Positions 1-28,886 of a stretch of 37,920 bases of DNA are shown one piece after another. Source of the stretch: a phage; the NCBI GenBank assembly GCA_033178465.1, contig GCA_033178465.1_4726.4. The stretch is one strand, 5' to 3'. Position 1 is the stretch's first letter; each line of letters opens with the position of its first letter. Both the position numbers and the translations under genes were made by a program. The notes beneath the pieces were generated by a model. That model saw only the letters and a program-made list of their open reading frames with translations, did no database searches and had not been told where the DNA came from.

Positions 1-3
1 ACA

Positions 4-25
4 GGCTCTCCAATGAAGGAGAGCC
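4..25 (-). terminator. Hairpin downstream of minus-strand gene 38-739
   Basis: Perfect inverted repeat GGCTCTCC / GGAGAGCC with 6-nt loop directly after the stop at 38; any U-tract would lie beyond the window edge. Confidence 0.3.
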
Positions 26-37
26 GTGACCGTCAGT

Positions 38-739
38 TTAAGATGCAGATAATCTCGCGTACTTCTGGCGAACATGGTTCTTACGGCGAACTTCGTCGTC
101 CTCGTCACGCCATTCGAGGTAAGCAACGAATCGACGTAACTGCGCCGCCGTCATCGTTGACGAGCGGTCTTCTACGTCTAGAACAACGTAACGAACGTCA
201 CCAACACCATCGCAATCAACGTAACTGAATACCAAAAGACCATCACCGTATTCAACGATGGTAACTTCGAATCGTTTATTGAACAAATAAAACAGTTCCG
301 ATTCAATGATCATCGGAATGACGCATAAATCAGCACGATTGAGGATTTCCATCATCACCCGTAACGCGCGAGGAGTATGGCGAGCGAACTGGTCGTTAAA
401 ACGTTGTTTCATCGCTTGTTCCACGCCATCTGTTTTTGTTCCAAACCACGGACGTACTACAGATTTCGGTGGTGTAAGACGAAAGCGATATGCTTGTATA
501 AACAACAGAATATCAGCGACGTTGGGAAATTCTTCCTGGTCTTCGTATATCTTGCGGATAATATCCGGAATCGTAACCATCAAGTATTTCTTATCGCCTC
601 CTACTTTCTCGAGATTAGCAATATGTCCTTCTACCACCGGCTGGTAAATGAAATTATACCAATGACGGTATCTTGCAGTACGTTGGTAGTTTGGGATAAA
701 ATTAAGAATAATACTCACTGCGCGTTTTAACGGGTTCAT
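38..739 (-). CDS. Hypothetical protein (233 aa)
   Basis: Long ORF; ATG at 739 preceded by AAGGA about 7 nt upstream; no recognisable motifs. Confidence 0.6.
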   Translation of the reverse strand: MNPLKRAVSIILNFIPNYQRTARYRHWYNFIYQPVVEGHIANLEKVGGDKKYLMVTIPDIIRKIYEDQEEFPNVADILLFIQAYRFRLTPPKSVVRPWFGTKTDGVEQAMKQRFNDQFARHTPRALRVMMEILNRADLCVIPMIIESELFYLFNKRFEVTIVEYGDGLLVFSYVDCDGVGDVRYVVLDVEDRSSTMTAAQLRRFVAYLEWRDEDDEVRRKNHVRQKYARLSAS

Positions 740-753
740 CGAAAGGATCCTTC

Positions 754-1167
754 TTATGTTTTAATATGCACATCGTCAATCCCCTCGGTAATCCAGCCGA
801 TGGGAAGGACAATCGTTGTTATCGTGTTATGGGTGTAGTGGTTGAGAAAATGGAAATAGTAATTTTTGTTAGACTGTTCGATCCTTAGGTCGAGATGCGC
901 GTCTTCAGGTAACCGTAACCAAGCACCGTACAGTTCATTAAACTTACGCTGAATTTTACCGGGGTTCATTGGAACCCCACGACCACGACGATGTAGCTGA
1001 CGTAATGATTCAATCAAACACTCAGAGATACCCGTTGTCGTTCCGTTATCGCTTGTATCAATAACGATGAACTCTCGTGACCCACGACCGAGATAAAAGC
1101 CAGCGACAAAAGCTGCAGCAACAAAAATTATCGTACCGATACCAATATACCAATAGTAAGTATCCAT
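754..1167 (-). CDS. Hypothetical membrane protein with N-terminal transmembrane segment
   Basis: ORF 754-1188; preferred ATG at 1167 (MDTYYWY...) has GAGG 5 nt upstream and lies after the upstream stop at 1179; hydrophobic stretch YIGIGTIIFVAAAFVAGFYLG. Confidence 0.55.
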   Translation of the reverse strand: MDTYYWYIGIGTIIFVAAAFVAGFYLGRGSREFIVIDTSDNGTTTGISECLIESLRQLHRRGRGVPMNPGKIQRKFNELYGAWLRLPEDAHLDLRIEQSNKNYYFHFLNHYTHNTITTIVLPIGWITEGIDDVHIKT

Positions 1168-1178
1168 AACGACCTCAC

Positions 1179-1706
1179 TTATACCCAATAGTCGGCAAGC
1201 GGTTTTACCTTATTAATGGGCAACTGTACTTTACCGATGTTCTCTACATCCGCATCTGCGTAGAGAACAATTTTATCATCGTCTCTTTCCCAACGAATAA
1301 TAAATCGACCAGGAAGAAGATTACTCTGTTCAAGAGACGCAGTAACCTGCTGCGTCAAAACAGACAACCAAGCAGGCATCAATGTTGCAATATCTAAGTC
1401 ATTTGACCACTCAGCACGTTGCTCCACTGGACGTAACATACGTTCGACGGTGCGTTGAACCGTTGCGGTGATATAGCCTTTATCTTCGTCACTGATTGGA
1501 TCAGGACGAGACACAAAACGTTCAGCAGGCTTGTGGGTAATATATTCATGCAAATCGATGAGTGGTGTTGTCATAGTACTCGCTCCATCAGAATGTAATT
1601 GGGTAACCCGCAGGGTTGTCTGCATGCTATTCAGAAGCGCAAAAGCGCCATAAACAACAACGATACCAAGTACGACCAAAACAGAAATCATTAACGTGTA
1701 TTGCAT
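1179..1706 (-). CDS. Hypothetical membrane-anchored protein
   Basis: ORF 1179-1754; preferred ATG at 1706 (MQYT...) has GGGGAG 6 nt upstream; N-terminal hydrophobic segment LMISVLVVLGIVVVYGAFALL. Confidence 0.55.
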   Translation of the reverse strand: MQYTLMISVLVVLGIVVVYGAFALLNSMQTTLRVTQLHSDGASTMTTPLIDLHEYITHKPAERFVSRPDPISDEDKGYITATVQRTVERMLRPVEQRAEWSNDLDIATLMPAWLSVLTQQVTASLEQSNLLPGRFIIRWERDDDKIVLYADADVENIGKVQLPINKVKPLADYWV

Positions 1707-1774
1707 TGTCATCTCCCCTTCATACGCATCTTGAAGATCGGTTAAAAACAACAAAAGAAAAAACGATATAAAGC

Positions 1775-1800
1775 AAGGTCCTCTGATATCAGAGGACCTT
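1775..1800 (-). terminator. Intrinsic terminator candidate (perfect 12-bp inverted repeat)
   Basis: AAGGTCCTCTGA-TA-TCAGAGGACCTT; on the minus strand it is followed by a T-rich run (complement of 1741-1774); sits between gene 1808-2464 and gene 1179-1706. Confidence 0.45.
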
Positions 1801-1807
1801 GGATCAA

Positions 1808-2464
1808 TTAGCTTGCAGCTTCTTCATTTGTATCAGGTTTGCTTCCCCCTAACAAACCGTCAAACAGACCCGTATGTTTCAGGTAGAAGAGAGCGATAGC
1901 GCCCATTGCTGCTGCGCTCGTCGCCGTTAACGCAACCCCGGCACGATACTGCCATTTACGGTCAGGCTTTTGATCAAGAGCCATACGACGCATGTATTCA
2001 GCCTCTGCTTCATTCCGATGAATTTCGGATTCAGCCAAGCGGGCTAAGGTATCGCGGTCAAGGTTATCATAACGTACGTTCATGGTGGTTTCCTCTTGTT
2101 TGGAAGTTGATTGCTTAATGGATTCTTGGTCAACAGTCGTTTCAGATGGTTCAAACGGCTGGTTGTTCATTTTCTGATCTTTATTGGTCATGATAGACTC
2201 CTTCGATTTTTGAGATGAAATTGATTTAAACCATCGTGGATGGCGGTATTCTGTTTTACATGTACAGTTAAGTTTCTCGTGTAGGAAAGCGTAAAAACGT
2301 TTTGCGCCTACACGTAAGGCTTTCAGCATTACCCATCCACGAGCACTCAAACGGTGTAGCTGTTGCGGTATGTCTAGTTTCCTAGCCAAGCGAAAGTATC
2401 TTTCAATCACTTCGATAGGAAACCATTGTTGTTCCACATCGGTGAGACTGAAAGTCTTATCCAT
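1808..2464 (-). CDS. Hypothetical protein with C-terminal transmembrane segment; possible alternative internal start at 2191
   Basis: 218-aa ORF; basic N-terminal part; in-frame ATG at 2191 preceded by a strong AAGGAG 6 nt upstream; C-terminal hydrophobic stretch VALTATSAAAMGAIALFYL. Confidence 0.5.
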   Translation of the reverse strand: MDKTFSLTDVEQQWFPIEVIERYFRLARKLDIPQQLHRLSARGWVMLKALRVGAKRFYAFLHEKLNCTCKTEYRHPRWFKSISSQKSKESIMTNKDQKMNNQPFEPSETTVDQESIKQSTSKQEETTMNVRYDNLDRDTLARLAESEIHRNEAEAEYMRRMALDQKPDRKWQYRAGVALTATSAAAMGAIALFYLKHTGLFDGLLGGSKPDTNEEAAS

Positions 2465-2495
2465 GAATGAAATCTCGCTGGCTTACTTCACTTAA

Positions 2496-2512
2496 GTAAT
2501 ATAGCCGTGAAA
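2496..2512. promoter_or_regulatory. Conserved 17-mer GTAATATAGCCGTGAAA (copy 1), candidate phage promoter or operator
   Basis: Identical 17-mer recurs at 15029-15045; both copies lie in intergenic DNA upstream of a minus-strand operon start. Confidence 0.3.
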
Positions 2513-2614
2513 AATGTTGGATTAAGTTAAATACTGCAACCGTAACTGATTTTATGGGCTTTTAGCCTAAACCAATCATCTTCGGAATCATCATCTTTGA
2601 AACAGGAACCTATC

Positions 2615-3436
2615 ATGGAAAAAGTATTTGTTTGTAAGTTGTTTACTAACGGCAATAGCCAACCAATGTACCTGACCGATCCAGTTCTAGGTAATCGGAA
2701 CAGCACCGTATTCAAAGAAGCTTTTGAGTACGCTAAAAATAAAGCCGTGAGAACACTGACGTCCGATGACTGTATCAACGGTATCACGTGGGCAGAGTTA
2801 TTCGGTGATGCTGTTAGACACTTCGTTCGGGACGCAAGAAAACGGGAAATCTGTCTCACGACTATCGTTGTGCGCGAAAACGCAGAAATTTTATCAAACG
2901 TTTTGGTTGATTTTAATGACGTTTGCGTGTTTAATCCAGAGAACACGTTTGAACAATATCTTACTGCCCTGAACAACCAGCTCGGTAAAGATATTCATCC
3001 CGAATTCGCCAAGTTAACGTATCAAGTGCTTTTTAACGACGTCGATCCAAATACGAAGATCGATACCAGCTTATCGCCCCTGGTAAAGAAATACGGATCG
3101 GTTCTCGCTACGGCAACACCCACCACCGATGGCGGTTATGATATCGAATTGGATGGTCCATTAAAAGAACAAGAGCCTACTGGGGTTCGGGCGGTACATC
3201 ACAACCTCGTCGTTAAATCTGATGGATGCGATGAACATTACGCTATGATGAACGATGAAAACAATTACCGTTTAAGTCAAGCGATTGGTGTTCTACGCTA
3301 TACCGAACCAACCGTTGTAGACGATTATACATCGACAACAACACACACCACGTGTTTCATTTTCATCTATCCCAATGAAAGTGTGTACATTACCGACTGC
3401 TACGGCAACACCGTAGATAGCTTACGTCGTTATTGA
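2615..3436 (+). CDS. Hypothetical protein (274 aa from ATG 2615)
   Basis: ORF 2597-3436 in track begins with TTG; first ATG at 2615 has AGGA upstream; followed by a classic terminator. Confidence 0.6.
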   Translation: MEKVFVCKLFTNGNSQPMYLTDPVLGNRNSTVFKEAFEYAKNKAVRTLTSDDCINGITWAELFGDAVRHFVRDARKREICLTTIVVRENAEILSNVLVDFNDVCVFNPENTFEQYLTALNNQLGKDIHPEFAKLTYQVLFNDVDPNTKIDTSLSPLVKKYGSVLATATPTTDGGYDIELDGPLKEQEPTGVRAVHHNLVVKSDGCDEHYAMMNDENNYRLSQAIGVLRYTEPTVVDDYTSTTTHTTCFIFIYPNESVYITDCYGNTVDSLRRY

Positions 3437-3442
3437 TTATCG

Positions 3443-3469
3443 AGCCTGTCCTTCGGGGCAGGCTTTTTA
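3443..3469 (+). terminator. Rho-independent terminator
   Basis: Stem AGCCTGTCC / GGGCAGGCT with UUCG tetraloop followed by TTTTT, directly after the stop at 3436. Confidence 0.75.
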
Positions 3470-3545
3470 TGCTGTTAAATATCAGGAATAAGAATTAACA
3501 AAATAGGAAAATGGTGTGAATATAACACAAAGGAGGGAGATGATT

Positions 3546-3662
3546 ATGTTACTCATTCTAATGGAGAGAGCATTGCTGGCGGGTATCTGCGCATTCTCTG
3601 TTAAACACGCTGTTGCTATCATGGCTGAAGAAAGGCGTAATACGCATAATGTATTACGCTGA
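3546..3662 (+). CDS. Small ORF (39 aa), hydrophobic peptide candidate
   Basis: ATG at 3546 (in-frame ATG also at 3540) preceded by strong AAGGAGGGAG; translation MLLILMERALLAGICAFSVKHAVAIMAEERRNTHNVLR; below the 60-aa cutoff of the track. Confidence 0.3.
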   Translation: MLLILMERALLAGICAFSVKHAVAIMAEERRNTHNVLR

Positions 3663-3771
3663 AAACACTGTGTGCATTAGTGTATGACGAGAAATCGTCG
3701 AGGCCCCCGTCTTCACGAGGGCCAACACCTATGCATGATTATCCATCGTCTGTTAAACAAAGGTTATAAAC

Positions 3772-4080
3772 ATGAGCAATTTGAACGTTGAATTTACTTC
3801 AACAACGCCTGTCATGAATGGTGTTGGCACTGAAACCAAAATCGTATTAGAACCCATTCCGGGGTTACGCGATCTCGGTGATTTTTATCCACTGATGCCG
3901 CGTATACGGAAGGCCTTAAACAGTATCGATCTTGATTCCAATAAAGATTTCCAACACGATACAGAAAATACCGATCATGTATTGCTGCCATCAGGGATCG
4001 CAAAATTCACCTACACGCAAACATTGAAAGCCTCTGATGGTGAAATCCGTCGTTTTATCGTTGAAGTAGAAAGCGCATAA
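3772..4080 (+). CDS. Hypothetical protein (102 aa)
   Basis: ORF with ATG at 3772; weak AAAGG upstream; followed by a conserved hairpin. Confidence 0.55.
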   Translation: MSNLNVEFTSTTPVMNGVGTETKIVLEPIPGLRDLGDFYPLMPRIRKALNSIDLDSNKDFQHDTENTDHVLLPSGIAKFTYTQTLKASDGEIRRFIVEVESA

Positions 4081-4084
4081 AAAC

Positions 4085-4116
4085 CATCCTCCCAACCCGT
4101 AAGGGAAGGGAGGATG
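4085..4116. terminator. Conserved hairpin at convergent gene junction (loop AACCCGTAAGGGAA)
   Basis: Stem CATCCTCCC / GGGAGGATG (9 bp) enclosing a 14-nt loop with inner CCC-GUAA-GGG; an identical loop recurs at 28864-28877. Confidence 0.45.
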
Positions 4117-4133
4117 AAATATGCCGTTAAACG

Positions 4134-4763
4134 TTATTCAACAAACCCTGCATTCAACAGATTGTCGTAAACACGATTAGCGACATCAACAGGAGAATGT
4201 GTGTTACTGGTATCTATACGCAGCGTTTTCGCGTCGCCGAGATAGTCCATAAAATCCATGTAACGATAACGTCGTTTATTGAATGTCGCTTCATCGATGT
4301 TATCAAACATCTGATGTTTAGCGTGACGAACACGGAACCGTCTTAAATACGTAGGATAGTCGATATCCAGATAAACATAGTAAGACGGCATGATAATCGA
4401 CGGTAGGTTCGGCAACAATGCGTCAAACAACTTAACGTTAGCATCATTAACCTGATAAACATACGTCGAAGCAATCGAACGATCGCTAAGCACAGTCTTC
4501 CCTTCGTTAAGGGCTGGATGAATCACCTTGTTGAAGAGATGATTACGTTGCGACATCATCGCCAACAGCTCGGTTTCCGGATCGAATCTGTTTGTTGGTG
4601 TTTGGTCTTCCAGGATAAGTTTACGAATTGCTTCTCCGTAGAGCGTACCACCGGGTTCGCGTACAACACAGACATTGTTTAAACGGCTGTGTAAAGACGA
4701 GATAACCGAACTCTTTCCTGAATAATCCAAACCTTCAATAACGATATACTTATTACGAGACAT
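4134..4763 (-). CDS. tmk: Thymidylate kinase-like nucleotide kinase
   Basis: P-loop IVIEGLDYSGKSS, REPGGT motif and DRSIASTYVYQ motif in the order typical of thymidylate kinases; ATG at 4763 with GGAG 6 nt upstream (track ORF begins at a TTG at 4775). Confidence 0.7.
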   Translation of the reverse strand: MSRNKYIVIEGLDYSGKSSVISSLHSRLNNVCVVREPGGTLYGEAIRKLILEDQTPTNRFDPETELLAMMSQRNHLFNKVIHPALNEGKTVLSDRSIASTYVYQVNDANVKLFDALLPNLPSIIMPSYYVYLDIDYPTYLRRFRVRHAKHQMFDNIDEATFNKRRYRYMDFMDYLGDAKTLRIDTSNTHSPVDVANRVYDNLLNAGFVE

Positions 4764-4779
4764 TCCCCGCTCCAATTAA

Positions 4780-6009
4780 CTACTTCGTTTTTGCCGCCAA
4801 CGGCTGCGATACTGTAATCTCTACCCGATTCTCATCAGTACGTTTAACGGTGATAAGGCTGCGTTCATCACCGAATGGTTCTGCTACCTTGGAAGCCTCT
4901 TTAAGATTTTCAAGAATCTCGCCAGAGGGTTCAAACACCGCGAAACCGGAGCTGGTGTCGGTTCTTATTAAACCTACGCGCGTACCATTTACGGTAATGA
5001 TGTCATCCGTCTTGAACCCGCAGCAGGAGGGTAGACAGAACTGGCCGTTAACGCAGTTAGCTAGGTATGCCTCACCGCCGAACATTTCTATTAACGTTAC
5101 CGGTTTAAATGTTTTCTCTGGGAAAGCGCTATTAAGAGTATCGTTTCCATTTACGAACCAGATCATTACTTTATCTTCGGAATACGTTAGCCGGTACGGT
5201 TGGGTTGCGGACGCTTGCGCTTTATGCTGATTAAATAACTTTGATTTCGTCGCAAGCACAGCACGACCTTCAGCATCAAAGTACAGAACTTCATATCTAA
5301 CACATCCGATAAACACGCGACGGTTATTAAGTTCCGGAATTCTGACTAATAACGCATCACCGTTTTCAGTAGGAACGATACCCCGTAGGATGATCGATTC
5401 ATTGTTCAATACCGAGTTGTTCACGGCGATGCTTCGCATTACCGCTGGCGTCACTATTTTATCTACTGCAGGTTCAAGTTGCTCCGATGTTACAACCATG
5501 GAGCTTTCTTCGTTTTCAACCGACTGATTAAAGATTATTTTATTAAGACAAACAATCGGTAGAATCCGGTCTACCCGCACCATCTCATCGAAAATCGCAG
5601 GAAAGCGACAAATATACGGAACAAAAACATCAATATCGTCGGTTGCTTTTTCAAGCATATTAGCATATTCAATTGCTTTAGAACGACCGTTGAGAAGAAT
5701 AACCGCATAAATAACACTATCTTCCAACCATGCGTTAGTTGTACGTCCGATAATACGATGGGTGTCTATTTCCGCGCGCTGGGGCTCCGGCGACCACTTT
5801 ATTGAGTTAACGCCGTCTACAACCACGTCAGCGCCATCATCACACAAACTTCGTATGAACCGACTGACGGTTTCCACATCGATCTGAATCCCTGTCTCCT
5901 CAATTTTCATCAGTGGAATAATGAACTCATTGTTACCACACTTCTTTGCTCCGCGAATAACAGGAGTACTCTTCTTGTTTTTAAGAGATCCCCAGATAAC
6001 TTTAGTCAT
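4780..6009 (-). CDS. Hypothetical protein (409 aa)
   Basis: Long ORF; ATG at 6009 with AAGGA 7 nt upstream; no motif recognised. Confidence 0.6.
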   Translation of the reverse strand: MTKVIWGSLKNKKSTPVIRGAKKCGNNEFIIPLMKIEETGIQIDVETVSRFIRSLCDDGADVVVDGVNSIKWSPEPQRAEIDTHRIIGRTTNAWLEDSVIYAVILLNGRSKAIEYANMLEKATDDIDVFVPYICRFPAIFDEMVRVDRILPIVCLNKIIFNQSVENEESSMVVTSEQLEPAVDKIVTPAVMRSIAVNNSVLNNESIILRGIVPTENGDALLVRIPELNNRRVFIGCVRYEVLYFDAEGRAVLATKSKLFNQHKAQASATQPYRLTYSEDKVMIWFVNGNDTLNSAFPEKTFKPVTLIEMFGGEAYLANCVNGQFCLPSCCGFKTDDIITVNGTRVGLIRTDTSSGFAVFEPSGEILENLKEASKVAEPFGDERSLITVKRTDENRVEITVSQPLAAKTK

Positions 6010-6042
6010 TTTCTGTTTCCTTCTTGGGTTTTGTACGAGTTT

Positions 6043-6657
6043 CTAACGGCGTTTTGTACCGACCTTCCCATTTCGATGGTCATCAAGAATACGCCATTCT
6101 TCGAACAAGAGTTCAGCAGCGAAATAACCTACGGCAATGCTGTCTATCGCATGCTCATCGAGATTCGCTAACACAACACCATTCTTGGGTGTGATGTTCA
6201 TGAGGTTCAACACTTTCTGGCGGACATCGTCCTTACCAACACGGGATGTCATGATCCCAACGGCGCGTTTTGCGCTTCGGTTATCAACCCCTAAGAAAGA
6301 CACCGTAGGGTCAAAATCGATAACCGTTGTCTGAATCGCTGAAAACAGTTCGCTGAGCGCCATACCGCTTTGCTTGAAACGACCGATGAATGGTGTCTCA
6401 CAAGCAACCGCTTGCGGCTGGTACTCTTGCAATAACGTTGTCAGCGAACGACGGTGTTCTTGGATACGTGCGGCACGATTACCGTATCCAAGCGCAATAT
6501 CGCCATCGGGATCATATCGACGTGAAGCGTGCCATGTCCCTGCATACAGCAGTTCAATATCTTCGACACGCACGTCCAAACGTAGTAACGACGCACCGAG
6601 TGTATCGGTGCCAGGGTCGATTGCCAGAATATCGTAAGCGTATTCTGGTGGGATCAT
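6043..6657 (-). CDS. RuvC-like (RNase H fold) nuclease, putative Holliday junction resolvase
   Basis: N-terminal ILAIDPGTDTLGAS resembles the RuvC first acidic motif; later ACETPF and DEHAIDSIAVGYF acidic motifs; ATG at 6657 overlaps the upstream stop as ATGA (translational coupling). Confidence 0.5.
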   Translation of the reverse strand: MIPPEYAYDILAIDPGTDTLGASLLRLDVRVEDIELLYAGTWHASRRYDPDGDIALGYGNRAARIQEHRRSLTTLLQEYQPQAVACETPFIGRFKQSGMALSELFSAIQTTVIDFDPTVSFLGVDNRSAKRAVGIMTSRVGKDDVRQKVLNLMNITPKNGVVLANLDEHAIDSIAVGYFAAELLFEEWRILDDHRNGKVGTKRR

Positions 6658-7466
6658 GGTGTTACAACAGCCTCTACTGACCATGGGAAGGTTTTCGCAA
6701 CAACACCTTCCAGGAAGCGTTCAACTTCCGATTGCTCATACACCGAAAGCTTTTCGAACGGCGTTTGGTCTTCGGTTAAACCTACCGCATGAATAGGACC
6801 CAAATCTTTAACCAGGGTAACTTCGCCTTTAACGCCTTCACGTTTAACGATGACTGCATGGTCATTAACCTTGGGATCGTACAGCACGCGCATCATGGTT
6901 ACTGCATCATCCGGTTCATAACCGAAATCGATGGCAACACGAGCATTCGTCCCTTCATCGTCCAGAAGCTTGCTTAGCGCCTTACAACGGTCTTCAATCC
7001 AATCCAACGCAACCACGGTTTCTTGGCGTAGCTGAACCTCAACCTCTTTTCCTTGTTCATCGATACGTTTCACGGTAACAAAATCGTGTAATAAACGGTC
7101 AGGAAGGAGAGAAGCAATAAGTTCAACGTTGGGTTCAGGTTTATCGTTTTCCAGAATGATGGTCGCTTGTGCATCCAGATGTTCTTTAAAACGGATGTAG
7201 CGTGTTAATCGTAGAACTTCATCCTGGGATTTTGCATCTTCGGGAATAATCTCCGTCATGACGTTATAGATCTTTTCAGCGAACGTAGGAATTACGGTGA
7301 TGGTAATTCGTGCTGGTGTGCCACGCTCCTGGTACTCATCGGCTAACTTCTTTGCCATCCCGTTAAAGTAGGTTTGGAGAAACGGCTGCTGCGTTAAAAA
7401 CATTTTCTCCAGATCGGAATAGCGATGCTTGCGTGCATGGCCTAGCTTCTTCATGGGCTTTTTCAT
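6654..7466 (-). CDS. Hypothetical protein (about 270 aa), translationally coupled to the RuvC-like gene
   Basis: ORF 6654-7469 begins at TTG; ATG at 7466 has AAGGA 9 nt upstream; no Mre11/SbcD phosphoesterase motifs found. Confidence 0.55.
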   Translation of the reverse strand: MKKPMKKLGHARKHRYSDLEKMFLTQQPFLQTYFNGMAKKLADEYQERGTPARITITVIPTFAEKIYNVMTEIIPEDAKSQDEVLRLTRYIRFKEHLDAQATIILENDKPEPNVELIASLLPDRLLHDFVTVKRIDEQGKEVEVQLRQETVVALDWIEDRCKALSKLLDDEGTNARVAIDFGYEPDDAVTMMRVLYDPKVNDHAVIVKREGVKGEVTLVKDLGPIHAVGLTEDQTPFEKLSVYEQSEVERFLEGVVAKTFPWSVEAVVTP

Positions 7467-7487
7467 CAACAGAAATCCTTATTTGTC

Positions 7488-10007
7488 TTAAATAATCGTG
7501 ACGTGTTCGTTATATGTTTCAGGGAGAATGATGTTCGTTTTATCAAGAACCATACACTCGGCTTTACGGAATGATGCGTGGTTGATAACATAGTGGCTGA
7601 TGAACCACACTTGGCTTACACGGTGACCGTCAACCAAACGACGAACAAAATCCATGGCATTAGATTGGTGCTGCGGATCAAATGTTGATGCGAATTCATC
7701 TAACATCAACGGATAATCCGTGAACCCTTTGTAATGCATCATCGCGATGATGAACGCGATATTGATAATTTCCTTTTGTCCCTTACTCCCATAAACAATA
7801 TCTTTTCGCGGTGTCGGATACTTCTCAGTTAAAAGCGGAAAACGATAGTTCAATCCTTGCGCATCGATAGCACATGGGAGTATCTGAAGTTGGTATTCCC
7901 AAATACTCGCAATGATACCGTTCATGTACTCAACGAACGCGTTGATGGGACCCGCAATTGTTTCGGCAATCAGGCCGTTGGATGGACTTAACTCATCCAG
8001 AACAAGTTGTGCATAACCGAGTTGTTCTTCCACCTCTTTTTGTGTCGTTTCCAGCTGAGCCAGAAGCTGTTGGTCGGTTTTAGCTTCCTGTAACTGCTGT
8101 TCGACATGGCTTATTCGGCGAACCGTATCAGACATCGCAGCACGTAACGATTTCGTGTAGAGGTGTTGCAGATACTCTAGCCACAGTTGCGTTAACGCTT
8201 TATCGCTGTTATCAGAACGTACCCGATCTTCCATAATCGCCGTAATGGTTTCCAATCTACCTTCCGTAGCTGTGATGGCTTGTGTTAACCGCTCAACGGT
8301 TGTTAACAACTCTGTCCTGTTCTTATAAAGCAATTCTCGACGTTGCTGTAACGGTTCAACATCAACCGCTTGTACCCGTTCGAGCATACCTTGAAGATGC
8401 TTCCGTTCCTGTTCGGCTTGTGTGTAACGCGCAAGTTTCTCAAACGCAAGCAACCAATCATTAATGATTCCAATACTGCGAAACCCTAATCCGTTTTTAC
8501 GGCCTTCTTCCAGCAGATTATCCCACATGGGTTTAATGGCGTAATAATCCTTCGTCCAACGTGTTAACTGACGATGCTGTTCCATCCAGAGCGTATAGCG
8601 CTGCACCTTCTCGCTAAGCTCAGCTAACGATTTCTCTTGTTCTTCAACCCAAGCACGGCCCTTCTGAATACGTTGTTCAATACCCGCTTTGCTGGTCTTT
8701 TCTGTTTCACCAACGTGAAAGCGATAATTGCATTTTGGACAGCTGGTCTGGGGTTGATGATTCAGGTGGTCAAGATGCGCTTCCAAATCGGCTAACGCAT
8801 GTTTCGCGTTACGCAAACGCATTCTTGCTGCCTCTTCCTCCTTGATGTAAGCTTCAGCATCGTAAACATGATAGGTGTTGTCGGTATCAATCCATTCTTG
8901 CAATAGTTCTGTTAACGGAGCCTGAACTTGCGTGAGCTGTTGTAAACAAACCGCAGCGTCCAGATTCATTGTTAAAAGCTCACCTGGATGATCTTGCTGA
9001 AGTTGTTCGTCCAAACAGGCAAGGCGGGCTTTAATCTGATCGATATCACCTTCGCCAGACTGTTTCAACTGGTCAAGGATATTATCGATACCCAACAGCT
9101 CGTCAACCTGACTTTCGAGTTTCGCATTCGCATTCGCGAGTTGTTCTCTTAGTTCAGCCAGATTCTGCTGTTCTTGTTGCGATGTTCCTCCCTGGTAACG
9201 AACAACCGCACGAAGAAGTTCGCGATTAAAATGATGGGCACGTTGTGCGGATTCCAGAAGCTGTCGTTGATCAACATCGCTATCGAATAACGGCAATCCC
9301 ATCATCGCTTCGAGCGCTGAGCGTTGCTGCTTTAACTCTGCTTCCAATCCCTGGTGGTCGGTTCCGGTGTATTTCGCTTCAATGCGCTGTGATGTTTCAA
9401 CCAACTTATTCAGCGTGTGCTCATTCACCGCTTTCAGTGAACGTACTTGTTGCTTAACCACCTGAAACAACTCGAGTGCGTAATCGACGTTAACCGGACA
9501 TATCTGCGTTAATCGTTCGCGACGTTTCATCGGTCCCATTTCGGTGAACTGGTAAGCCGTTTCGTAACCTAACAACAAACGAATGGTGTCATCATTAAGT
9601 TCAAAATGTTCTTCGATCAGTTTCCACTGGGCCGGTTGTGTGCCACCACCATTCAGGTTCTCGCTGTCGTTAACGTAGAACTCATGCTTAAACCCTTTTT
9701 CTAAACGACTGATAAGACGGTATTGCTTATTACGGTGTTCGCAGCGGTACTCGTAATACCCGTCTTTATCAAAATCGGCACGCTCAGGAACGGTCGGATA
9801 CAGCAAAGGCAATAGACTACTCTTACCGGAACCATTACTACCTAAAATGAGTTGTACGGGATTATCTGGCCGGATGACCAGCTCCCGAATCATCCCGGTA
9901 TCAAAACGATTGAATCCACGTAAGTGGAGATAGGTGCATCGCATGCTATGATAATCCTTCTTCGATACCTTCTGAACCACGGGTTCAGAATGCGAAGCTG
10001 AAGCCAT
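7488..10007 (-). CDS. Rad50/SbcC-family recombination ATPase (T4 gp46-like architecture)
   Basis: Walker A GSNGSGKSS near N-terminus, long coiled-coil-like Q/E/L-rich middle with a CPKC zinc-hook-like motif, signature-like GSKGQKE, Walker B LMLDEFA and H-loop ISH near C-terminus; start uncertain (ATG 10007 lacks an SD; ATG 9944 has AAGGA upstream). Confidence 0.75.
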   Translation of the reverse strand: MASASHSEPVVQKVSKKDYHSMRCTYLHLRGFNRFDTGMIRELVIRPDNPVQLILGSNGSGKSSLLPLLYPTVPERADFDKDGYYEYRCEHRNKQYRLISRLEKGFKHEFYVNDSENLNGGGTQPAQWKLIEEHFELNDDTIRLLLGYETAYQFTEMGPMKRRERLTQICPVNVDYALELFQVVKQQVRSLKAVNEHTLNKLVETSQRIEAKYTGTDHQGLEAELKQQRSALEAMMGLPLFDSDVDQRQLLESAQRAHHFNRELLRAVVRYQGGTSQQEQQNLAELREQLANANAKLESQVDELLGIDNILDQLKQSGEGDIDQIKARLACLDEQLQQDHPGELLTMNLDAAVCLQQLTQVQAPLTELLQEWIDTDNTYHVYDAEAYIKEEEAARMRLRNAKHALADLEAHLDHLNHQPQTSCPKCNYRFHVGETEKTSKAGIEQRIQKGRAWVEEQEKSLAELSEKVQRYTLWMEQHRQLTRWTKDYYAIKPMWDNLLEEGRKNGLGFRSIGIINDWLLAFEKLARYTQAEQERKHLQGMLERVQAVDVEPLQQRRELLYKNRTELLTTVERLTQAITATEGRLETITAIMEDRVRSDNSDKALTQLWLEYLQHLYTKSLRAAMSDTVRRISHVEQQLQEAKTDQQLLAQLETTQKEVEEQLGYAQLVLDELSPSNGLIAETIAGPINAFVEYMNGIIASIWEYQLQILPCAIDAQGLNYRFPLLTEKYPTPRKDIVYGSKGQKEIINIAFIIAMMHYKGFTDYPLMLDEFASTFDPQHQSNAMDFVRRLVDGHRVSQVWFISHYVINHASFRKAECMVLDKTNIILPETYNEHVTII

Positions 10008-10058
10008 ACTTCAGCGTTATTTTCTATATCGTTATTTAAATCAGTAGGAGATTACAGC

Positions 10059-11147
10059 ATGAGCGATCTGGCAACAGACAATCGCACAAAAGGGAGTCAG
10101 CTAGCTCCAGACAACAACGTAAGCGTTTTCCGTATCTATGCCTTGGGTACTGTTGCTGCCGACTTTTCCAATAAAAGTCTGGAGGAAGATCCTAACCAGA
10201 CGCTGGAGGTCTTTCTTGATGAGATGATGTCAGGCGCTGATGGGAAAGTTGAAGCGGCGGGAAGCGTTAAAGAAGTCAGTGCAACAGACGCTCAAGGGAA
10301 CAGCTATACGGCGAAAGCGGCAACAACAACCAGCGTACAGTGTTACTGGTTACCTTTCGGCAGTAACCGGATGACGGCACCTAACTTGAGGAAAGGTCAG
10401 CGTGTGGTGGTCTGGCGTACCGCTGATGAAGAACAGCTCTACTGGCAGCCCAAAGGAGGGGATAGTGAGCTGATGACCATGGAATCGGTTATCCTCACCG
10501 TCAGCGCACGTCCTAGCGCTAAGAAGGACCGTAAATCGATTTCAACGGAAGACTGCTATTACCTAATGGTTGATACCTTCCTCAAGAAAGCGGTTATCGG
10601 CACCAGCGCACAGCTTGGTGAAGTTACCCAAGTCTACATGGAACTTAATCTGGACGAGGGTTACCTACAGGTTGCGGACAGCGTCCATCAAAATCTGCTG
10701 TTACTCCATTTCGTTGAACATATGCTGCGTTATCAAAACCAGGATGACAGCATCATCGACGTGACAAAAAAGAACATCACATTCCAGTGCGAGGATACGC
10801 TCAAAGCAATCGCTAAGAACGATATCCGAATGAAAGCAAAAAATATTTATACGGAATGTGAGAACTTCGAGCGTACTAGCAAAACAGAAAGCGTTACGAG
10901 TCAGAATGTTTCTTTGAAGTGTGATCGTTACACCGCGCAAGTATCAGGACAGACCACGTTTAAATGTCCGAATACGGTATTCACTGGAGCTGTAAGCTTC
11001 ACAGGTGAAGACGGAAACACGATGACGCTGAATGGGAACTTCATACACATCGCAGGCTCTTGGCGTTCACCAACCGGAACAAACGTATACACCCACGATC
11101 ACGGTGGTGTAGATCGTGGCAGCGGTCGTACAGACCCGTTCCAATAA
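10059..11147 (+). CDS. Putative baseplate central spike protein (gpV-like), tentative
   Basis: ATG at 10059 with AGGAG 8 nt upstream; C-terminus YTHDHGGVDRGSGRTDP resembles the His-rich apex of gpV/gp45-type spikes as I recall them; not verified. Confidence 0.35.
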   Translation: MSDLATDNRTKGSQLAPDNNVSVFRIYALGTVAADFSNKSLEEDPNQTLEVFLDEMMSGADGKVEAAGSVKEVSATDAQGNSYTAKAATTTSVQCYWLPFGSNRMTAPNLRKGQRVVVWRTADEEQLYWQPKGGDSELMTMESVILTVSARPSAKKDRKSISTEDCYYLMVDTFLKKAVIGTSAQLGEVTQVYMELNLDEGYLQVADSVHQNLLLLHFVEHMLRYQNQDDSIIDVTKKNITFQCEDTLKAIAKNDIRMKAKNIYTECENFERTSKTESVTSQNVSLKCDRYTAQVSGQTTFKCPNTVFTGAVSFTGEDGNTMTLNGNFIHIAGSWRSPTGTNVYTHDHGGVDRGSGRTDPFQ

Positions 11148-11166
11148 AAAAGAAATGCTATACAAC

Positions 11167-11200
11167 CTCCTTCCCTAGCCGTCAAGGCCGGGGAAGGAGG
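11167..11200. terminator. Conserved GGAGG-rich hairpin at convergent junction
   Basis: Stem CCTCCTTCCC / GGGAAGGAGG (10 bp), loop TAGCCGTCAAGGCC; between stop 11147 (plus) and stop 11216 (minus). Confidence 0.45.
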
Positions 11201-11215
11201 ATTATAGTTTATTTA

Positions 11216-11605
11216 TTAACGCGTTGCATTCTGGATGATTTCTTTTCCGATCTTAACCAAAGCGGGTATCTGTACAGCGGTTGCGCCTCGATGACGAAAC
11301 GCAGTCGTTAACGCGGTATCGATACTCACCGCACGTCCGTGAAGACGATCGAAATAGACTTGAGTGATTGCGGTAGCGTAATCCTTTCGCTGTTTCTTGG
11401 TTTGGCTCAACAGCGCCGCACTATGACTAACGATGAAGTAAGCGATTAAGAAGAACGCCGCTGACCGCGAACCAGGTAGAAAACCTTGTCGCTTAGGAAG
11501 CATCTCACAATCGCGAACACTATTATCGTTCGCCAGCTCTTCCATATCAACACAGCATAATTTTGCATAGGTGTGGAGATAGTGGGTAAAAGTTGAATTT
11601 AACAT
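11216..11605 (-). CDS. Hypothetical protein (129 aa from ATG 11605)
   Basis: Track ORF begins at GTG 11653; ATG at 11605 has GAGGAAAG upstream; hydrophobic central segment. Confidence 0.5.
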   Translation of the reverse strand: MLNSTFTHYLHTYAKLCCVDMEELANDNSVRDCEMLPKRQGFLPGSRSAAFFLIAYFIVSHSAALLSQTKKQRKDYATAITQVYFDRLHGRAVSIDTALTTAFRHRGATAVQIPALVKIGKEIIQNATR

Positions 11606-11711
11606 TTTTCTTTCCTCGATTACAATGAGTTCAATGTATAGCTTAAACGTCACAGAACGACGTATAACGGTTTGTTTTAATTTCTAATGGGTTTCCTTAT
11701 CTAAGATTGAA

Positions 11712-12074
11712 TTAAAGCGCTCTGAAGAGTTCTGTAGCGTTCTCGTCACGTAGACAGGCTTCGTTCAACAATTCAGCTAACAGCTTCGACCGAACTTCAA
11801 CAAATGTCCTGAGGCGATGCTCCCATTCTAAACGGATGGTGTAAGTATTATCCAGGTTTTTGTAATCAACGACAGATACCGAGCAGCGGGGTTCACGTTT
11901 GTTCACAGCACTCCAAACATCACGGATAACCGTCACGCCTTTCTTGGTGCATGTAAACGTTAAAATACAGCGGTTATTCGCAGCTTCTTCACGGACATGA
12001 CTAAATTCACTTCGTAACGATGAGACTTTGATCAGTCGGTCAATAGCTAACGATAAACCGATACGTTGTTGCAT
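11712..12074 (-). CDS. Hypothetical small protein (120 aa)
   Basis: ATG 12074 with AGAGGGGA 6 nt upstream; start lies 1 nt from the upstream stop. Confidence 0.55.
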   Translation of the reverse strand: MQQRIGLSLAIDRLIKVSSLRSEFSHVREEAANNRCILTFTCTKKGVTVIRDVWSAVNKREPRCSVSVVDYKNLDNTYTIRLEWEHRLRTFVEVRSKLLAELLNEACLRDENATELFRAL

Positions 12075-12075
12075 A

Positions 12076-12504
12076 TCAAATCCCCTCTTTCAGAATCTCA
12101 TCGAGGCTATTAGCAACCGCATCTAACTTCGTGCTGATTACTTTTGGTGTCAATCCGTATATTTTCCAAACTATCTGCGGTTGACGTATTCCATTTGTCT
12201 GACAATACATCTCGATCGACAACACCATATCGTCGGTGAACGTCGTGCTTTCGCAACAACGAAGATAGGCAGCCTCGAGCAACGTCTTTCCTAACGTGGT
12301 ACACACAAAAGTCAATCGAACGCAACGCATAGACAACGTGTTCGCATTCATTGATGCTGAGATCGGCTGAATGTGTTCACTCAGTTTTTCGTCTTCACGT
12401 AAAAGTGATAGGGTGCGATGTAAGCTGGTATGCTGAGCAACCAGCGAATGATAAAGACCAACGCGCGCTGCAGTTGCTGCTGATTCGGGCCATTTAATTT
12501 TCAT
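12076..12504 (-). CDS. Hypothetical small protein (142 aa)
   Basis: ATG 12504 with GAGGAA 6 nt upstream. Confidence 0.55.
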   Translation of the reverse strand: MKIKWPESAATAARVGLYHSLVAQHTSLHRTLSLLREDEKLSEHIQPISASMNANTLSMRCVRLTFVCTTLGKTLLEAAYLRCCESTTFTDDMVLSIEMYCQTNGIRQPQIVWKIYGLTPKVISTKLDAVANSLDEILKEGI

Positions 12505-12519
12505 GTTCGATTCCTCGTA

Positions 12520-12963
12520 TTAACACTGTGTTCCATTCGATAAGCGGGTGGTATCAAAACGATCCAGTTGGTGTACAATGCTATTAGCAACACGATGCAA
12601 ATAGTGTATTTTGTCCATTCGTGAAATCGCAGAAATCGTCCAGCAAGCCTCTGACGTCCAATAGGTGCCGTCTTCACTAAGGCTAACGTTATAAACTAAT
12701 TTCGTCATCACATTTCTCGCCTTATGCTCAGCAGACCAGAATATGTTTTCTAACACATCCTTCCCCGTTTGTGAAAACACGAACCCAAGCTTCACGTCGA
12801 AGTCGGATGCTTCAAGATTAACGAAGTGAAGATGATTCTCCAAAGGCGCAAAAGAGGCTAAACGTTCCAGCGCGTTTTGCAGCGTGGGATGATCGAGCTT
12901 TTCGAGATCATCTACAGGTTGTTCAGGTACAATCGCGATCGATTTACAGAATTTAATTTCCAT
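12520..12963 (-). CDS. Hypothetical small protein (147 aa)
   Basis: ATG 12963 with AAGAGGAA upstream. Confidence 0.55.
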   Translation of the reverse strand: MEIKFCKSIAIVPEQPVDDLEKLDHPTLQNALERLASFAPLENHLHFVNLEASDFDVKLGFVFSQTGKDVLENIFWSAEHKARNVMTKLVYNVSLSEDGTYWTSEACWTISAISRMDKIHYLHRVANSIVHQLDRFDTTRLSNGTQC

Positions 12964-12993
12964 GGTAGGTTCCTCTTGATAGATGGTAGTAAC

Positions 12994-13013
12994 GGGGATA
13001 CCGCGGTATCCCC
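12994..13013. promoter_or_regulatory. Perfect 20-bp palindrome GGGGATACCGCGGTATCCCC
   Basis: Exact palindrome about 30 nt upstream of the RBS of gene 12520-12963; a related palindrome occurs at 27492-27509. Confidence 0.35.
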
Positions 13014-13071
13014 TAAGTCTTTATAACACACCCCAAGCCATATTGGGTACAGGCTCGTTACGTTCGATGAA

Positions 13072-13473
13072 TCACATCAGTTGTTCTTTAAGTTGGGTTA
13101 ACTTATTTGCAACGATGTTCTCAACGTCGATCATCTTGTTCATGTTGTCGAGGGTATCCTGCCAGATGAAAATATCCACGGAACCGGTTCCGGCTAACGC
13201 GTTCTCAGGACGATGGTCGCGGGTCACGTAGCGTGGTCTCTGCGGGCAGGTTTGTAACTCGATCCAAAGCGCATCTAACGGACCGTGGTCCGTGACACCT
13301 AAGGCGAAGAATTCACCTCGTACGACCAGAACATCATCAGCCGTCCTGACACGGGTTGATCCTTCGTACACCAATTCCATCTTTGCTCGGCAGGACGGGT
13401 TCCCGTTCCACGCCTGGACGGCATCGGCAAGGGCTATTGACGTTGCGGTGGTGTTCGTTTGATCATGTTGCAT
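13072..13473 (-). CDS. Hypothetical small protein (133 aa)
   Basis: ATG 13473 with AGGAG 7 nt upstream. Confidence 0.55.
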   Translation of the reverse strand: MQHDQTNTTATSIALADAVQAWNGNPSCRAKMELVYEGSTRVRTADDVLVVRGEFFALGVTDHGPLDALWIELQTCPQRPRYVTRDHRPENALAGTGSVDIFIWQDTLDNMNKMIDVENIVANKLTQLKEQLM

Positions 13474-13550
13474 TCTAAGCTCCTGTAACGCTCTATAAGC
13501 GTCGTTTTAAGTTAAGGTATAGTTTCCCTTCTTTGGATTCGTTTATTGCG

Positions 13551-13826
13551 TTATACGGCTTTTCTGTGCGCGTAGAACGCCTTCGTTCCGTTGTTGATTG
13601 CTTCAACCACATCCGGGGTTAACACAACGGCGTTATCGCTTCGAGATGACGGTGCGTAATACCCTTCACCGTTCTCGGTAATCAGGCGATAACGGACTAA
13701 GCCTATGCTCGGTTCAACACGTAGCACCTTCTCAAGTTTGTATTTGATGATCTTCGTCAGGCTGACTGTGTCTGACGCGTAGATTGCTTTATAAACCTTG
13801 TTCTTTGCTGTCGGTTTCATCAACAT
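13551..13826 (-). CDS. Hypothetical small protein (91 aa)
   Basis: ORF with ATG 13826; weak RBS. Confidence 0.45.
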   Translation of the reverse strand: MLMKPTAKNKVYKAIYASDTVSLTKIIKYKLEKVLRVEPSIGLVRYRLITENGEGYYAPSSRSDNAVVLTPDVVEAINNGTKAFYAHRKAV

Positions 13827-13866
13827 GATTTCTGTTGTATTTTCCTTTTCGTTTGTTGGTGATGGA

Positions 13867-14166
13867 TTAAGGTTTAGGTTCCGTTTTGTGTTGTGCGAGT
13901 AGTGTGTTGATCTGCTCCCGTTGTTCTTTTAAGCATGCGGGAAGCTGGTCTTCCCGCACCGTTCCGATTTCCAACGTGATGTACCAACGTTGTTCGGAAG
14001 CCTGCCATTGAAAACTGCTCTGTAAACGTAGGATGTTAGGATCGTGTACCTTGCTTGCGCTGTAGCGGTTGAACCAATCCAGGTAAGCTGCTTTCCCCTC
14101 CTCATCGGCAACGTAACGCTGCACGCTGTTCTTCCCTTTGTTTTCGTATCCCGTTGCACGTATCAT
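13867..14166 (-). CDS. Hypothetical small protein (99 aa from ATG 14166)
   Basis: Track ORF 13867-14223 overlaps the upstream gene; the only in-frame ATG (14166) has AAGGAG upstream and removes the overlap. Confidence 0.5.
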   Translation of the reverse strand: MIRATGYENKGKNSVQRYVADEEGKAAYLDWFNRYSASKVHDPNILRLQSSFQWQASEQRWYITLEIGTVREDQLPACLKEQREQINTLLAQHKTEPKP

Positions 14167-14189
14167 GCGAATGTTTCTCCTTGGTTGTA

Positions 14190-14939
14190 TTAGGGATGGC
14201 GCAACATAGTCACATCCCAGCATACCAGCTTGCTTTTCTCAAGCATCTTCTGCGCGATATCGACGCTAACTCTAGGATGCATGACAGGTAGCCAACGTTC
14301 GTTAAGTACCTTCGCTTCCAGGCGTTGCTTGCGCTTATTGTAACGTACCTCGCTAACCCATGCGTAACCAAAAGGATGGATAACCCGTGGGTAGTAACGT
14401 TTAAGCATCATCAGTCTTTGCTGATAAAGTTTATCGGAACCCTCGCTAACGAATAAGGCAACCCGTTCCAACCGCTTGGTGTAATACGTTCCGGTGGTAT
14501 GATTGATCCAACCAGGAAGTGCGCGTACGTCATTTTCGAGTGTTCCTGATACGTTGTGCACTTCACCGCTATACACCGTCCCAACAACCTGATTCGCTGC
14601 GCCCACCATCGACCGTGGCAAAGCATCCGCGGTAGGATACAACCATGCGTCCCCAAGCTGCTCTCCCGACGCAAGTACGCGTAGTCCGCTTGCGCTCATC
14701 CGTTGCGGATGCTGGCTCTTATGCGCACGCAACTGCACCACAGATAAGTCCGCTGGATAGGCGACGCAACAACCTCGCTGACGGAACAGTCCAACCTCAC
14801 CATCCATCCCTTCGATCATGCTTCCTTCCGAACCGTTCCACCAACGCTTAACCTTCACGCATTCCGCTTGCACAGCCTCAGGCAACGTTAGATAATCGTG
14901 CTCGATAAACACCACATCAAAAATTAATTCATTGTTCAT
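14190..14939 (-). CDS. Hypothetical protein (249 aa), first gene of the small-gene cassette
   Basis: ATG 14939 with AGAGGA upstream; immediately downstream of the AT-rich regulatory region. Confidence 0.55.
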   Translation of the reverse strand: MNNELIFDVVFIEHDYLTLPEAVQAECVKVKRWWNGSEGSMIEGMDGEVGLFRQRGCCVAYPADLSVVQLRAHKSQHPQRMSASGLRVLASGEQLGDAWLYPTADALPRSMVGAANQVVGTVYSGEVHNVSGTLENDVRALPGWINHTTGTYYTKRLERVALFVSEGSDKLYQQRLMMLKRYYPRVIHPFGYAWVSEVRYNKRKQRLEAKVLNERWLPVMHPRVSVDIAQKMLEKSKLVCWDVTMLRHP

Positions 14940-15190
14940 TTAAAAAGATCCTCTGTTTCACGTTAATTAAACAACGTATTGATTTCTATTCGACAACAAT
15001 ACGAACATTGTCCGTATGCATCATAGAGGTAATATAGCCGTGAAAGGATTTGTGTTACAGAAAGGGTTTTGTTGTGTTTTAAGAAGGGATGGATTTAGAA
15101 GAGGTGTTTCAAGGAAGGTAAACGAGGATGGTTATTTTAATTTAAGTAAGTAAGATGTTATCTGTATTTGTTAAAAGTGTATTGTCCATG

Positions 15191-15254
15191 TTATCTTGTT
15201 TATCTTAGGTTTAATCGTTTTATCTTTGTATGTTTAAGTTGTTTTATTTATCTT
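15191..15254. repeat. Iteron-like TTATCTT heptamer repeats (4 copies)
   Basis: TTATCTT at 15191, 15200, 15220 and 15248. Confidence 0.4.
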
Positions 15255-15738
15255 GTTTGTATATTTAAATTAAATCAATAAGCGTATCTTCAAAACAATG
15301 GATAACATGTGTTTACTACCTTAATGGTAACACATGTCATCTGTGCATTACACTCCGTTATCACTTCGTTACATGCTTATATGTTGGATAACTCAAAAAA
15401 CCATTTGTGATACTCTTCTTCACGTTGTTCATCAGAGTATCTCGTCTATACTCATTGCATTCGTATACGACATAACCGTTATACGCTAACGCTACGCTTA
15501 TAGCTTGATAACTCTAAGGATAAAAACATAAACTCGCTTCGCTCGTTTAGTTTTTCTTTTTCTTAGAGTTATCCTGTTGCTCGTCTCTAAAGGACTTCGC
15601 TCCTCCCCCGTCCCCCGAAGGGGCCGAGGTCGTGGAAATTTTACTTTCCAAATACATTTACAACATCTGTAAACTTTTACTCCAGGTACTTAATCTTATC
15701 ATTAGAAATTATAAAGAGAAGAATAAACACAAACATAA

Positions 15739-15763
15739 ACCTTCCCCCGACCCAACAGGGAAG
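15739..15763 (-). terminator. Intrinsic terminator candidate after gene 15783-16676
   Basis: Stem CCTTCCC / GGGAAGG with 11-nt loop; on the minus strand it is followed by a T-rich tract (complement of 15721-15738). Confidence 0.45.
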
Positions 15764-15782
15764 GAGGAAGGGAGAGATTAAA

Positions 15783-16676: not shown

Positions 16677-16721
16677 TTTCTACCTCTATGGTTGTTACAT
16701 CACTCTCAAAAGATGTAAGTG

Positions 16722-16750
16722 TTTACAGAAATTAATATATTTTATATTAA
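16722..16750 (+). promoter_or_regulatory. Sigma70-like promoter candidate for gene 16819-17361
   Basis: TTTACA (16722-16727), 17-nt spacer, TATTAA (16745-16750); about 60 nt upstream of the ATG. Confidence 0.35.
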
Positions 16751-16818
16751 TGTAAATAATATGGAGAACGACTCCGAATCTCCTTTTCGACCATCAAAAA
16801 ATCAGAGGACACACAATC

Positions 16819-18291: not shown

Positions 18292-18302
18292 AGGAACCTC
18301 TA

Positions 18303-19412: not shown

Positions 19413-19420
19413 TGTCGAAT

Positions 19421-19444
19421 AAGAGGGAGTGGCAGCTCCCTCTT
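19421..19444 (+). terminator. Terminator candidate after the HNH gene
   Basis: Stem AAGAGGGAG / CTCCCTCTT (9 bp) with 6-nt loop, followed by a partly T-rich run. Confidence 0.4.
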
Positions 19445-19488
19445 TATGCCGTGTTGTTAAATACTGGATTTAGAGGAACAGGAAGGGT

Positions 19489-28844: not shown

Positions 28845-28854
28845 CCAAACATAA

Positions 28855-28886
28855 CCCTCCTCCAACCCGTAAGGGAAGGAGGAGGG
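28855..28886. terminator. Conserved hairpin at convergent gene junction (loop AACCCGTAAGGGAA)
   Basis: Stem CCCTCCTCC / GGAGGAGGG (9 bp); 14-nt loop identical to the one at 4094-4107. Confidence 0.45.

Follow-up and report, generated by a model that had tools for sequence, protein, structure and literature searches.

The window analysed here, a 37,920-nt stretch of phage DNA, contains two exact copies of a 17-mer (GTAATATAGCCGTGAAA) that are very probably the conserved centres of two early-class promoters for the virion-borne RNA polymerase (vRNAP) in a Goslar-like chimallivirus. We assign them to this class because they share the octamer, the six-base spacing to a G and the TTT and A-rich upstream parts that are seen in promoters of the phiKZ type. 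The motif forms a family of defined orientation and placement that shares sequence identity with experimentally mapped phiKZ-type early promoters, and in Goslar its sites coincide with the starts of blocks that are transcribed when only the vRNAP is active; we infer direct recognition by the vRNAP and the exact start nucleotide. Judged from the alignment, the functional element is about 37 nt and longer than the 17-mer.

A blastn comparison aligned positions 1-37920 of the window colinearly, at 93-97% identity (~94% overall), with Escherichia phage vB_EcoM_Goslar (positions 65-36811); the two sequences differed by two divergent patches and one 1.17-kb insertion. Goslar is a 237-kb nucleus-forming jumbo phage of E. 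coli (Chimalliviridae). Its genome carries split RNAP beta/beta' genes, and no RNAP genes were found in the 38-kb window itself. We used the whole Goslar genome and its annotation for a genome-wide motif test. A search of the window against Rfam gave no match.

An exact pattern search of the window confirmed the identical 17-mers that the initial annotation had reported at 2496-2512 and 15029-15045, and found no third match when up to three mismatches were allowed. Read on the minus strand, the 17-mer is TTTCACGGCTATATTAC. The window ORFs likewise bore out the statement that both copies are intergenic and stand ahead of minus-strand blocks: the copies are located 31 nt (copy 1) and 89 nt (copy 2) upstream of the ATGs at 2464 (218-aa ORF) and 14939 (249-aa ORF), each of which heads a run of minus-strand ORFs. 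The remaining exact repeats of at least 17 nt in the window were all found in paralogous coding repeats. An exact match of the 17-mer in an unrelated 42-kb contig was judged to be a chance occurrence. The features discussed below are collected in Table 1.

Table 1. Promoters, transcription units and associated hairpins in the 37,920-nt window
Feature	Position	Strand	Basis and remarks
gp003-gp001 orthologues	38..1754	-	ORFs
Terminator-like hairpin, 12 bp, strong intrinsic type	1774..1801	-	Directly after gp004 orthologue; Goslar annotates a terminator in the same place
First gene of unit 1	1808..2464	-	ORF; orthologue of Goslar gp004, 218 aa
Full early promoter 1	2488..2524	-	-35 to +2; 50.0 bits; A-34, A-29, TAYATTAC and T-1/G+1 present
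17-mer copy 1	2496..2512	-	-23 to -7 of early promoter 1 (TTTCACGGC + TATATTAC); exact match; register from the 13-site Goslar alignment
Terminator-like hairpin CCTCCTTCCC...GGGAAGGAGG with T-run	11166..11200	-	End of early operon; Goslar annotates a terminator here
Eight-gene early operon	11216..14939	-	ORFs; orthologues of Goslar gp021-gp014; small proteins
5'-terminal stem-loop of transcript 2, predicted	14992..15022	-	Starts at +1; RNA fold -8.8 kcal/mol, z = -1.9
Full early promoter 2	15021..15057	-	-35 to +2; 40.8 bits; orthologous to Goslar site 15053
17-mer copy 2	15029..15045	-	-23 to -7 of early promoter 2; exact match
Terminator-like hairpin, same family	15738..15771	-	After late structural gene (gp022 orthologue)

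The genome-wide check for enrichment that had been proposed for the motif was run on the close relative Goslar and gave 13 sites, each of them on the minus strand and ahead of a gene. This genome contains 13 minus-strand matches to the pattern TAYATTAC-N5-TG and no plus-strand match, and all 13 sites were intergenic, 25-205 nt before a minus-strand start codon. The resulting Goslar element comprises 37 nt from -35 to +2 (tAAnncA - A/T-rich - TTTCACGRC-TAYATTAC-YTnnn-TG(+1)A). A-34, A-29, the octamer at -14 to -7, T-5, T-1 and G+1 were invariant in 13/13 sites, where the octamer TAYATTAC has a pyrimidine at -12 and its other seven bases are fixed. Conservation was strong but not invariant for the TTT at -23 to -21, C-A-C-G at -20 to -17, C-15 and A+2, and positions -28 to -24 were A/T-rich. 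Both window sites carry TAYATTAC and T-1/G+1.

We built a scoring matrix spanning -35 to +2 from the Goslar sites and used 20 shuffled Goslar genomes as background. Twelve Goslar sites scored 40-51 bits (top score 50.9) and the thirteenth 28.5 bits, compared with a maximum of 15.7 bits in the shuffled genomes. The two window sites reached the scores given in Table 1, and no further site of at least 6 bits was found in the window. Near-misses of the core were rarer in the real Goslar genome than in the shuffles (one non-family match of at least 12 bits versus 2-8), and sigma-70-like sites were depleted at positions 1-16000 of the window (18 versus 27.5 expected). Both depletions point to selection against spurious sites of initiation. 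The motif was also present at orthologous places in two further Goslar-like viral contigs, and the gp021 promoter in these relatives varied only at positions that are variable in the family. When viral contigs were scanned with TTT-N6-TATATTAC-N5-TGA, the matches listed were mostly chance; by eye, contigs of >200 kb that carry TTTCAG-type sites were over-represented among them.

Two observations on individual Goslar loci were also made. A weak fourteenth match (18.4 bits, cctacataacctaaggG) is found on the minus strand at genome position 151620 (L004:1620), 89 nt ahead of gp165, an RNAP beta-like gene, where a small expression step occurs from ~0.07 (gp166) to ~+0.5 (gp165). For gp047 (L001:49584-49772), the annotated start at 49772 falls within the promoter, upstream of the start site predicted at 49718, and either this ORF start or the gene itself is probably misannotated.

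According to a review, every RNAP-encoding jumbo phage has a highly conserved AT-rich early motif of ~10 nt near -10, and such motifs are detectable bioinformatically upstream of early operons; transcription of phiKZ-type phages is independent of the host RNAP. The published early core of phiKZ is TATATTAC, and the consensus for 201phi2-1 is TTAWTAVAA_HYWTTTRARR_BTATATTACDWHDGTG. The core of the vRNAP early promoters in phiKZ, 201phi2-1 and AR9 has been given as TATATTAC or TATATTAT, with the start site 6 nt downstream; the early consensus of AR9 is AAATATATATTAT-(6N)-G+1, and phiKZ and phiR1-37 also start 6 nt past the element. The phiKZ element has been described as an extended -10 box that is T-rich upstream of -19, and conservation at -10, -20 and -30 has been described for the early motif of 201phi2-1. 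The early motif of phiKZ gp054 has been experimentally linked to a primary start site. Goslar encodes a virion-packaged multisubunit RNAP, and its sites combine a core near -10 with T-rich -20 and A-rich -30 conservation, both of which characterize the phiKZ type.

The chimallin promoters of phiKZ (gp054, tgaaaaaaatttgagatttatattactaaattGaat) and Goslar (tgaaaaaaatttcagggttatattacctaggtGaat) were nearly identical, and the distance from the G to the ATG was 66 nt in both phages. When applied to positions 1-50 kb of phiKZ, the Goslar matrix found six intergenic plus-strand sites, each 28-45 nt or more ahead of a gene. The Goslar type thus resembles the published phiKZ early promoters (Ceyssens 2014, Wicke 2021) in its identical octamer, in the equal distance to the conserved TG, in the TTT block ~6 nt before the octamer with an A-tract farther upstream, and in its intergenic sites that are co-oriented with early operons. 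It differs from them in that phiKZ has TTTAAACAG or TTTGAGAT where most Goslar-type sites read TTTCACGRC, in the invariant A-34/A-29 and the tolerance of TACATTAC variants, and in the number of sites (13-14 in Goslar versus 28-32 early promoters in phiKZ); moreover, the Goslar-type start sites are predictions from sequence. The middle (an A-rich run followed by TACT near -22) and late (TATG, G at +1) patterns of phiKZ were absent from the conserved columns.

With AR9, the Goslar type shares an AT-rich element that ends at about -7, six bases and G+1, and both phages have an injected multisubunit vRNAP. However, AR9 reads T at -7, where the Goslar type has C, its alternating AT run is longer, and it has uracil-containing DNA, a Bacillus host and no nucleus. 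For 201phi2-1, OBP, EL and N1M2 (predicted promoters; Lewis 2020, Table 2; ONT-cappable-seq for 201phi2-1), the pattern TTTxAxx-(T/K)ATATTA(C/T)-N5-GTG is shared with the Goslar type, whereas the upstream halves are lineage-specific and the hosts are Pseudomonas or Klebsiella. The promoters of N4 are analogous in function, as they are read by an injected virion polymerase, but this polymerase is a single-subunit enzyme that uses DNA-hairpin promoters, and no hairpin was predicted at the window sites. A partial inverted repeat (TCAC...GTGA) that flanks the octamer had suggested a hairpin promoter of the N4 type, which we rejected; DNA folding of the window sites gave -1.7 and 0 kcal/mol, not more stable than shuffled sequences, and TCAC/GTGA showed no consistent covariation across the aligned Goslar sites.

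Expression data for Goslar were available from Armbruster et al. (bioRxiv 10.1101/2023.09.20.558163), who reported that the vRNAP protein gp196 is packaged and enters a membrane vesicle with the injected DNA, and that chimallin knockdown arrests the phage at the vesicle stage with a transcriptome that matches early infection. We compared the per-gene RNA-seq table for ChmA knockdown versus control with the 13 motif sites. The first gene after the motif was retained at 13/13 sites with log2FC values of ~+0.5 to +1.4 (gp004, gp021, gp040, gp047, gp075, gp105, gp159, gp175, gp182, gp246 (chmA), gp225, gp214 and gp200), while the neighbour on the upstream side was lost (-3 to -8) at 8/13 sites (gp005, gp022, gp041, gp048, gp076, gp160, gp224 and gp213). 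At gp200, a ninth site, the plus-strand neighbour gp199 was lost as well. Within long early regions, the retained signal faded to ~0 and, where the next motif stands, stepped up again to ~+1 (gp106 to gp105, gp176 to gp175). The motif sites head early operons in Goslar that include chmA-gp247 and gp175-gp171; the phiKZ type is defined by sites ahead of early operons, among them those of chimallin and non-virion RNAP genes. Retention in vesicle-arrested Goslar lends indirect support to initiation that would need neither host RNAP nor new protein synthesis, and we infer that the Goslar expression data carry over to the 94%-identical phage of the window.

Steps up in retained expression at the vesicle stage were also observed at Goslar gp183 and gp236 (L004 ~16088-16924 and 30244-30564), for which scans with core-only matrices revealed no further convincing site in Goslar. 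Some early initiation may use a divergent or different signal, and the motif may not account for all of it.

In the mechanism that we propose, a multisubunit vRNAP injected with the DNA would act alone or with a virion-borne specificity factor and would recognize the asymmetric element of ~37 bp through tAAnncA (-35 to -29), the A/T-rich stretch, TTTCACGRC (-23 to -15), TAYATTAC (-14 to -7), YT (-6/-5) and TG(+1)A. Initiation is predicted at the conserved G on the minus strand of the window, at 2489 for promoter 1 and at 15022 for promoter 2. Promoter 1 would then drive the gp004 orthologue, with part of the transcription running on into gp003-gp001, and promoter 2 the eight-gene gp021-gp014 operon up to its conserved hairpin terminator.

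Promoter 1 is orthologous to the Goslar site at 2553, and its predicted leader to the gp004 orthologue is 25 nt long. In vesicle-arrested Goslar infection, gp004 was retained with log2FC values of +1.2 to +1.3 and gp001-gp003 with values of +0.2 to +0.6, while gp005-gp013 were lost. Read counts in Goslar fell ~two-fold past gp004. The matrix scan found no other motif site upstream of the gp003-gp001 orthologues, which are probably reached by read-through from promoter 1.

Promoter 2 differs from its Goslar counterpart only at -16, -12 and -4/-3, all of which are variable across the family, and the predicted leader to its operon is 83 nt long. Goslar gp014-gp021 were all retained (log2FC +0.8 to +1.4), and the flanking genes gp013 and gp022 were lost (-4 to -6.6), as were gp022-gp036 as a whole in vesicle-arrested infection. 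Searches of ten proteins downstream of the two promoters, including the gp004 orthologue, against Pfam and PHROG gave no match; proteins without a known family have likewise been reported for the early genes of 201phi2-1.

The hairpin at 15738-15771 is predicted to insulate promoter 2 from upstream transcription. Hairpins of this family, often followed by a T-run, were also observed at 4083-4116, 11166-11200 and 28853-28886; the copies stand at the ends of transcription units, several of them between convergent genes, and the family is probably the standard, partly bidirectional terminator of this lineage. Between the late-gene terminator and promoter 2 lies a gene-free AT-rich spacer of 680 nt (15058-15737), with a GC content of 33.5% versus 46.4% for the window and 92% identity in Goslar. 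Seven GATAAC/GTTATC hexamers were counted in 800 nt, compared with ~1.3 expected, and the spacer also contains an inverted repeat (CTTAGAGTTATC) at about 15504-15575. It may serve as an origin or a protein-binding array, or may encode a non-coding RNA.

In the alignment, T-1/G+1 stood exactly 6 nt past the core in 13/13 Goslar sites and in both window sites. The start site is likely this conserved G, the seventh base after ...TTAC, which would fall within the ~15 nt downstream of the motif that the initial annotation had set as the limit for a transcription start. A 'TSS' sequence for Goslar chmA, given in a figure legend (bioRxiv 10.1101/2023.09.20.558163), begins 91 nt before the ATG; this is 25 nt upstream of our predicted +1, and the coverage-based, ambiguous position does not confirm the predicted start.

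We computed the folding of the predicted leaders and found that a stem of at least 4 bp begins at +1 or +2 in 10/13 predicted Goslar leaders, compared with 20% of random 40-mers (p = 1.8e-5). The predicted Goslar leaders were also more structured than shuffled sequences (Stouffer Z = -4.6). These 5' stems provide independent support for the predicted start site. At site 2, the pairing of the stem is kept relative to Goslar through a compensatory G:C to C:G swap. Among six phiKZ leaders checked, two had a stem from +1, which was strong only at chmA. It is conceivable, although we regard it as rather unlikely, that the vRNAP early promoter of the Goslar lineage is coupled to a stem-loop flush with the first transcribed nucleotide. 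If true, such a stem-loop could be a dedicated 5'-end signal, which might block 5'-end-dependent decay or mark transcripts for export from the vesicle. This enrichment is the sole mildly new element of the analysis, and no such feature has been reported for the early transcripts of phiKZ.

We considered the possibility that the motif is a promoter for the host enzyme. The initial annotation had pointed to a -10-like TATATT, and the hexamer is present, within the octamer TATATTAC at -14 to -7, but it is not a sigma-70 -10 box. TATATT matches TATAAT at 5/6 positions and site 2 offers a marginal 9/12 match to a sigma-70 promoter (GTAACA-16-TATATT); however, this match is at chance level (4 found versus 3.4 expected), site 1 has no sigma-70-like match at all (-35 TTGACA, 16-18-nt spacer, -10 TATAAT), and sigma-70-like sites are depleted in the window, as described above. 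The columns conserved in the family (TTTCACGRC at -23 to -15, C-7, T-5, T-1/G+1 and A-34/A-29) are not sigma-70 determinants, phiKZ-type transcription runs without host RNAP, and the early programme of Goslar proceeds in a membrane vesicle that contains the vRNAP. A sigma-70 promoter read by E. coli RNA polymerase is therefore highly improbable. A coincidental repeat, or the remnant of a small duplication without function, is less credible still. One exact 17-nt direct pair in a 37.9-kb sequence is only moderately improbable by chance (~0.04 expected by our estimate), but this reading is refuted because of the genome-wide distribution of the motif, with 13 oriented intergenic copies in Goslar. 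Orthologous copies are present in the two additional viral contigs, the flanks of the window copies are unrelated outside the motif columns, and the motif sites match expression boundaries in Goslar.

The element might instead be an operator or activator-binding site, or an RNA signal in the 5' UTR, with the true start upstream of the motif. If the chmA 'TSS' at 91 nt before the ATG were taken literally, TATATTAC would be placed inside the transcript, and the literature names no promoter-reading protein for this phage family. In contrast, the element is located at about -10 of mapped 5' ends in phiKZ, AR9, phiR1-37 and 201phi2-1, and the phiKZ gp054 promoter, which is tied to a primary start, is nearly identical to that of Goslar. 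The element is asymmetric, without a dyad and without a stable DNA hairpin, and the 5' stems begin at the predicted +1 in 10/13 cases. We consider this alternative improbable, if somewhat less so than a host promoter. Accordingly, of the phage-specific promoter or activator site originally suggested, the promoter part holds and can be made specific as the vRNAP early class, and a separate activator is not required.

We found no published description of a consensus for the Goslar lineage, and neither a promoter nor a motif is mentioned in the Goslar transcriptome paper. The early-class promoters described here provide a sequence-defined early-promoter map for an E. coli-infecting model chimallivirus lineage. 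The map accounts for the blocks in the published transcriptome of the vesicle stage, and its compact 37-bp elements are usable for in vitro study of promoter recognition by the vRNAP; the question of which factor reads such promoters can already be approached in phiKZ. Conceptually nothing is added, as the class, early promoters of phiKZ served by a virion RNAP, has reportedly been known since the work of Ceyssens in 2014.

Several further features of the window were observed in the comparison with Goslar. Two patches, 14397-14850 and 5485-6015, could not be aligned to Goslar by blastn, although their surroundings are 93-97% identical; the former falls within the gp021 orthologue, which heads the early operon. 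The 1.17-kb insertion (18298-19466) stands between the endolysin and a structural gene and encodes a plus-strand ORF of 369 aa with a Pfam Stc1 (zinc-finger) domain, which is possibly a mobile or homing-type gene. Periodic repeats of 183 nt (61 aa) were found at 19571-21619 and 25306-27459; two large virion structural genes (orthologues of Goslar gp025 and gp029) share them, both internally and with each other.
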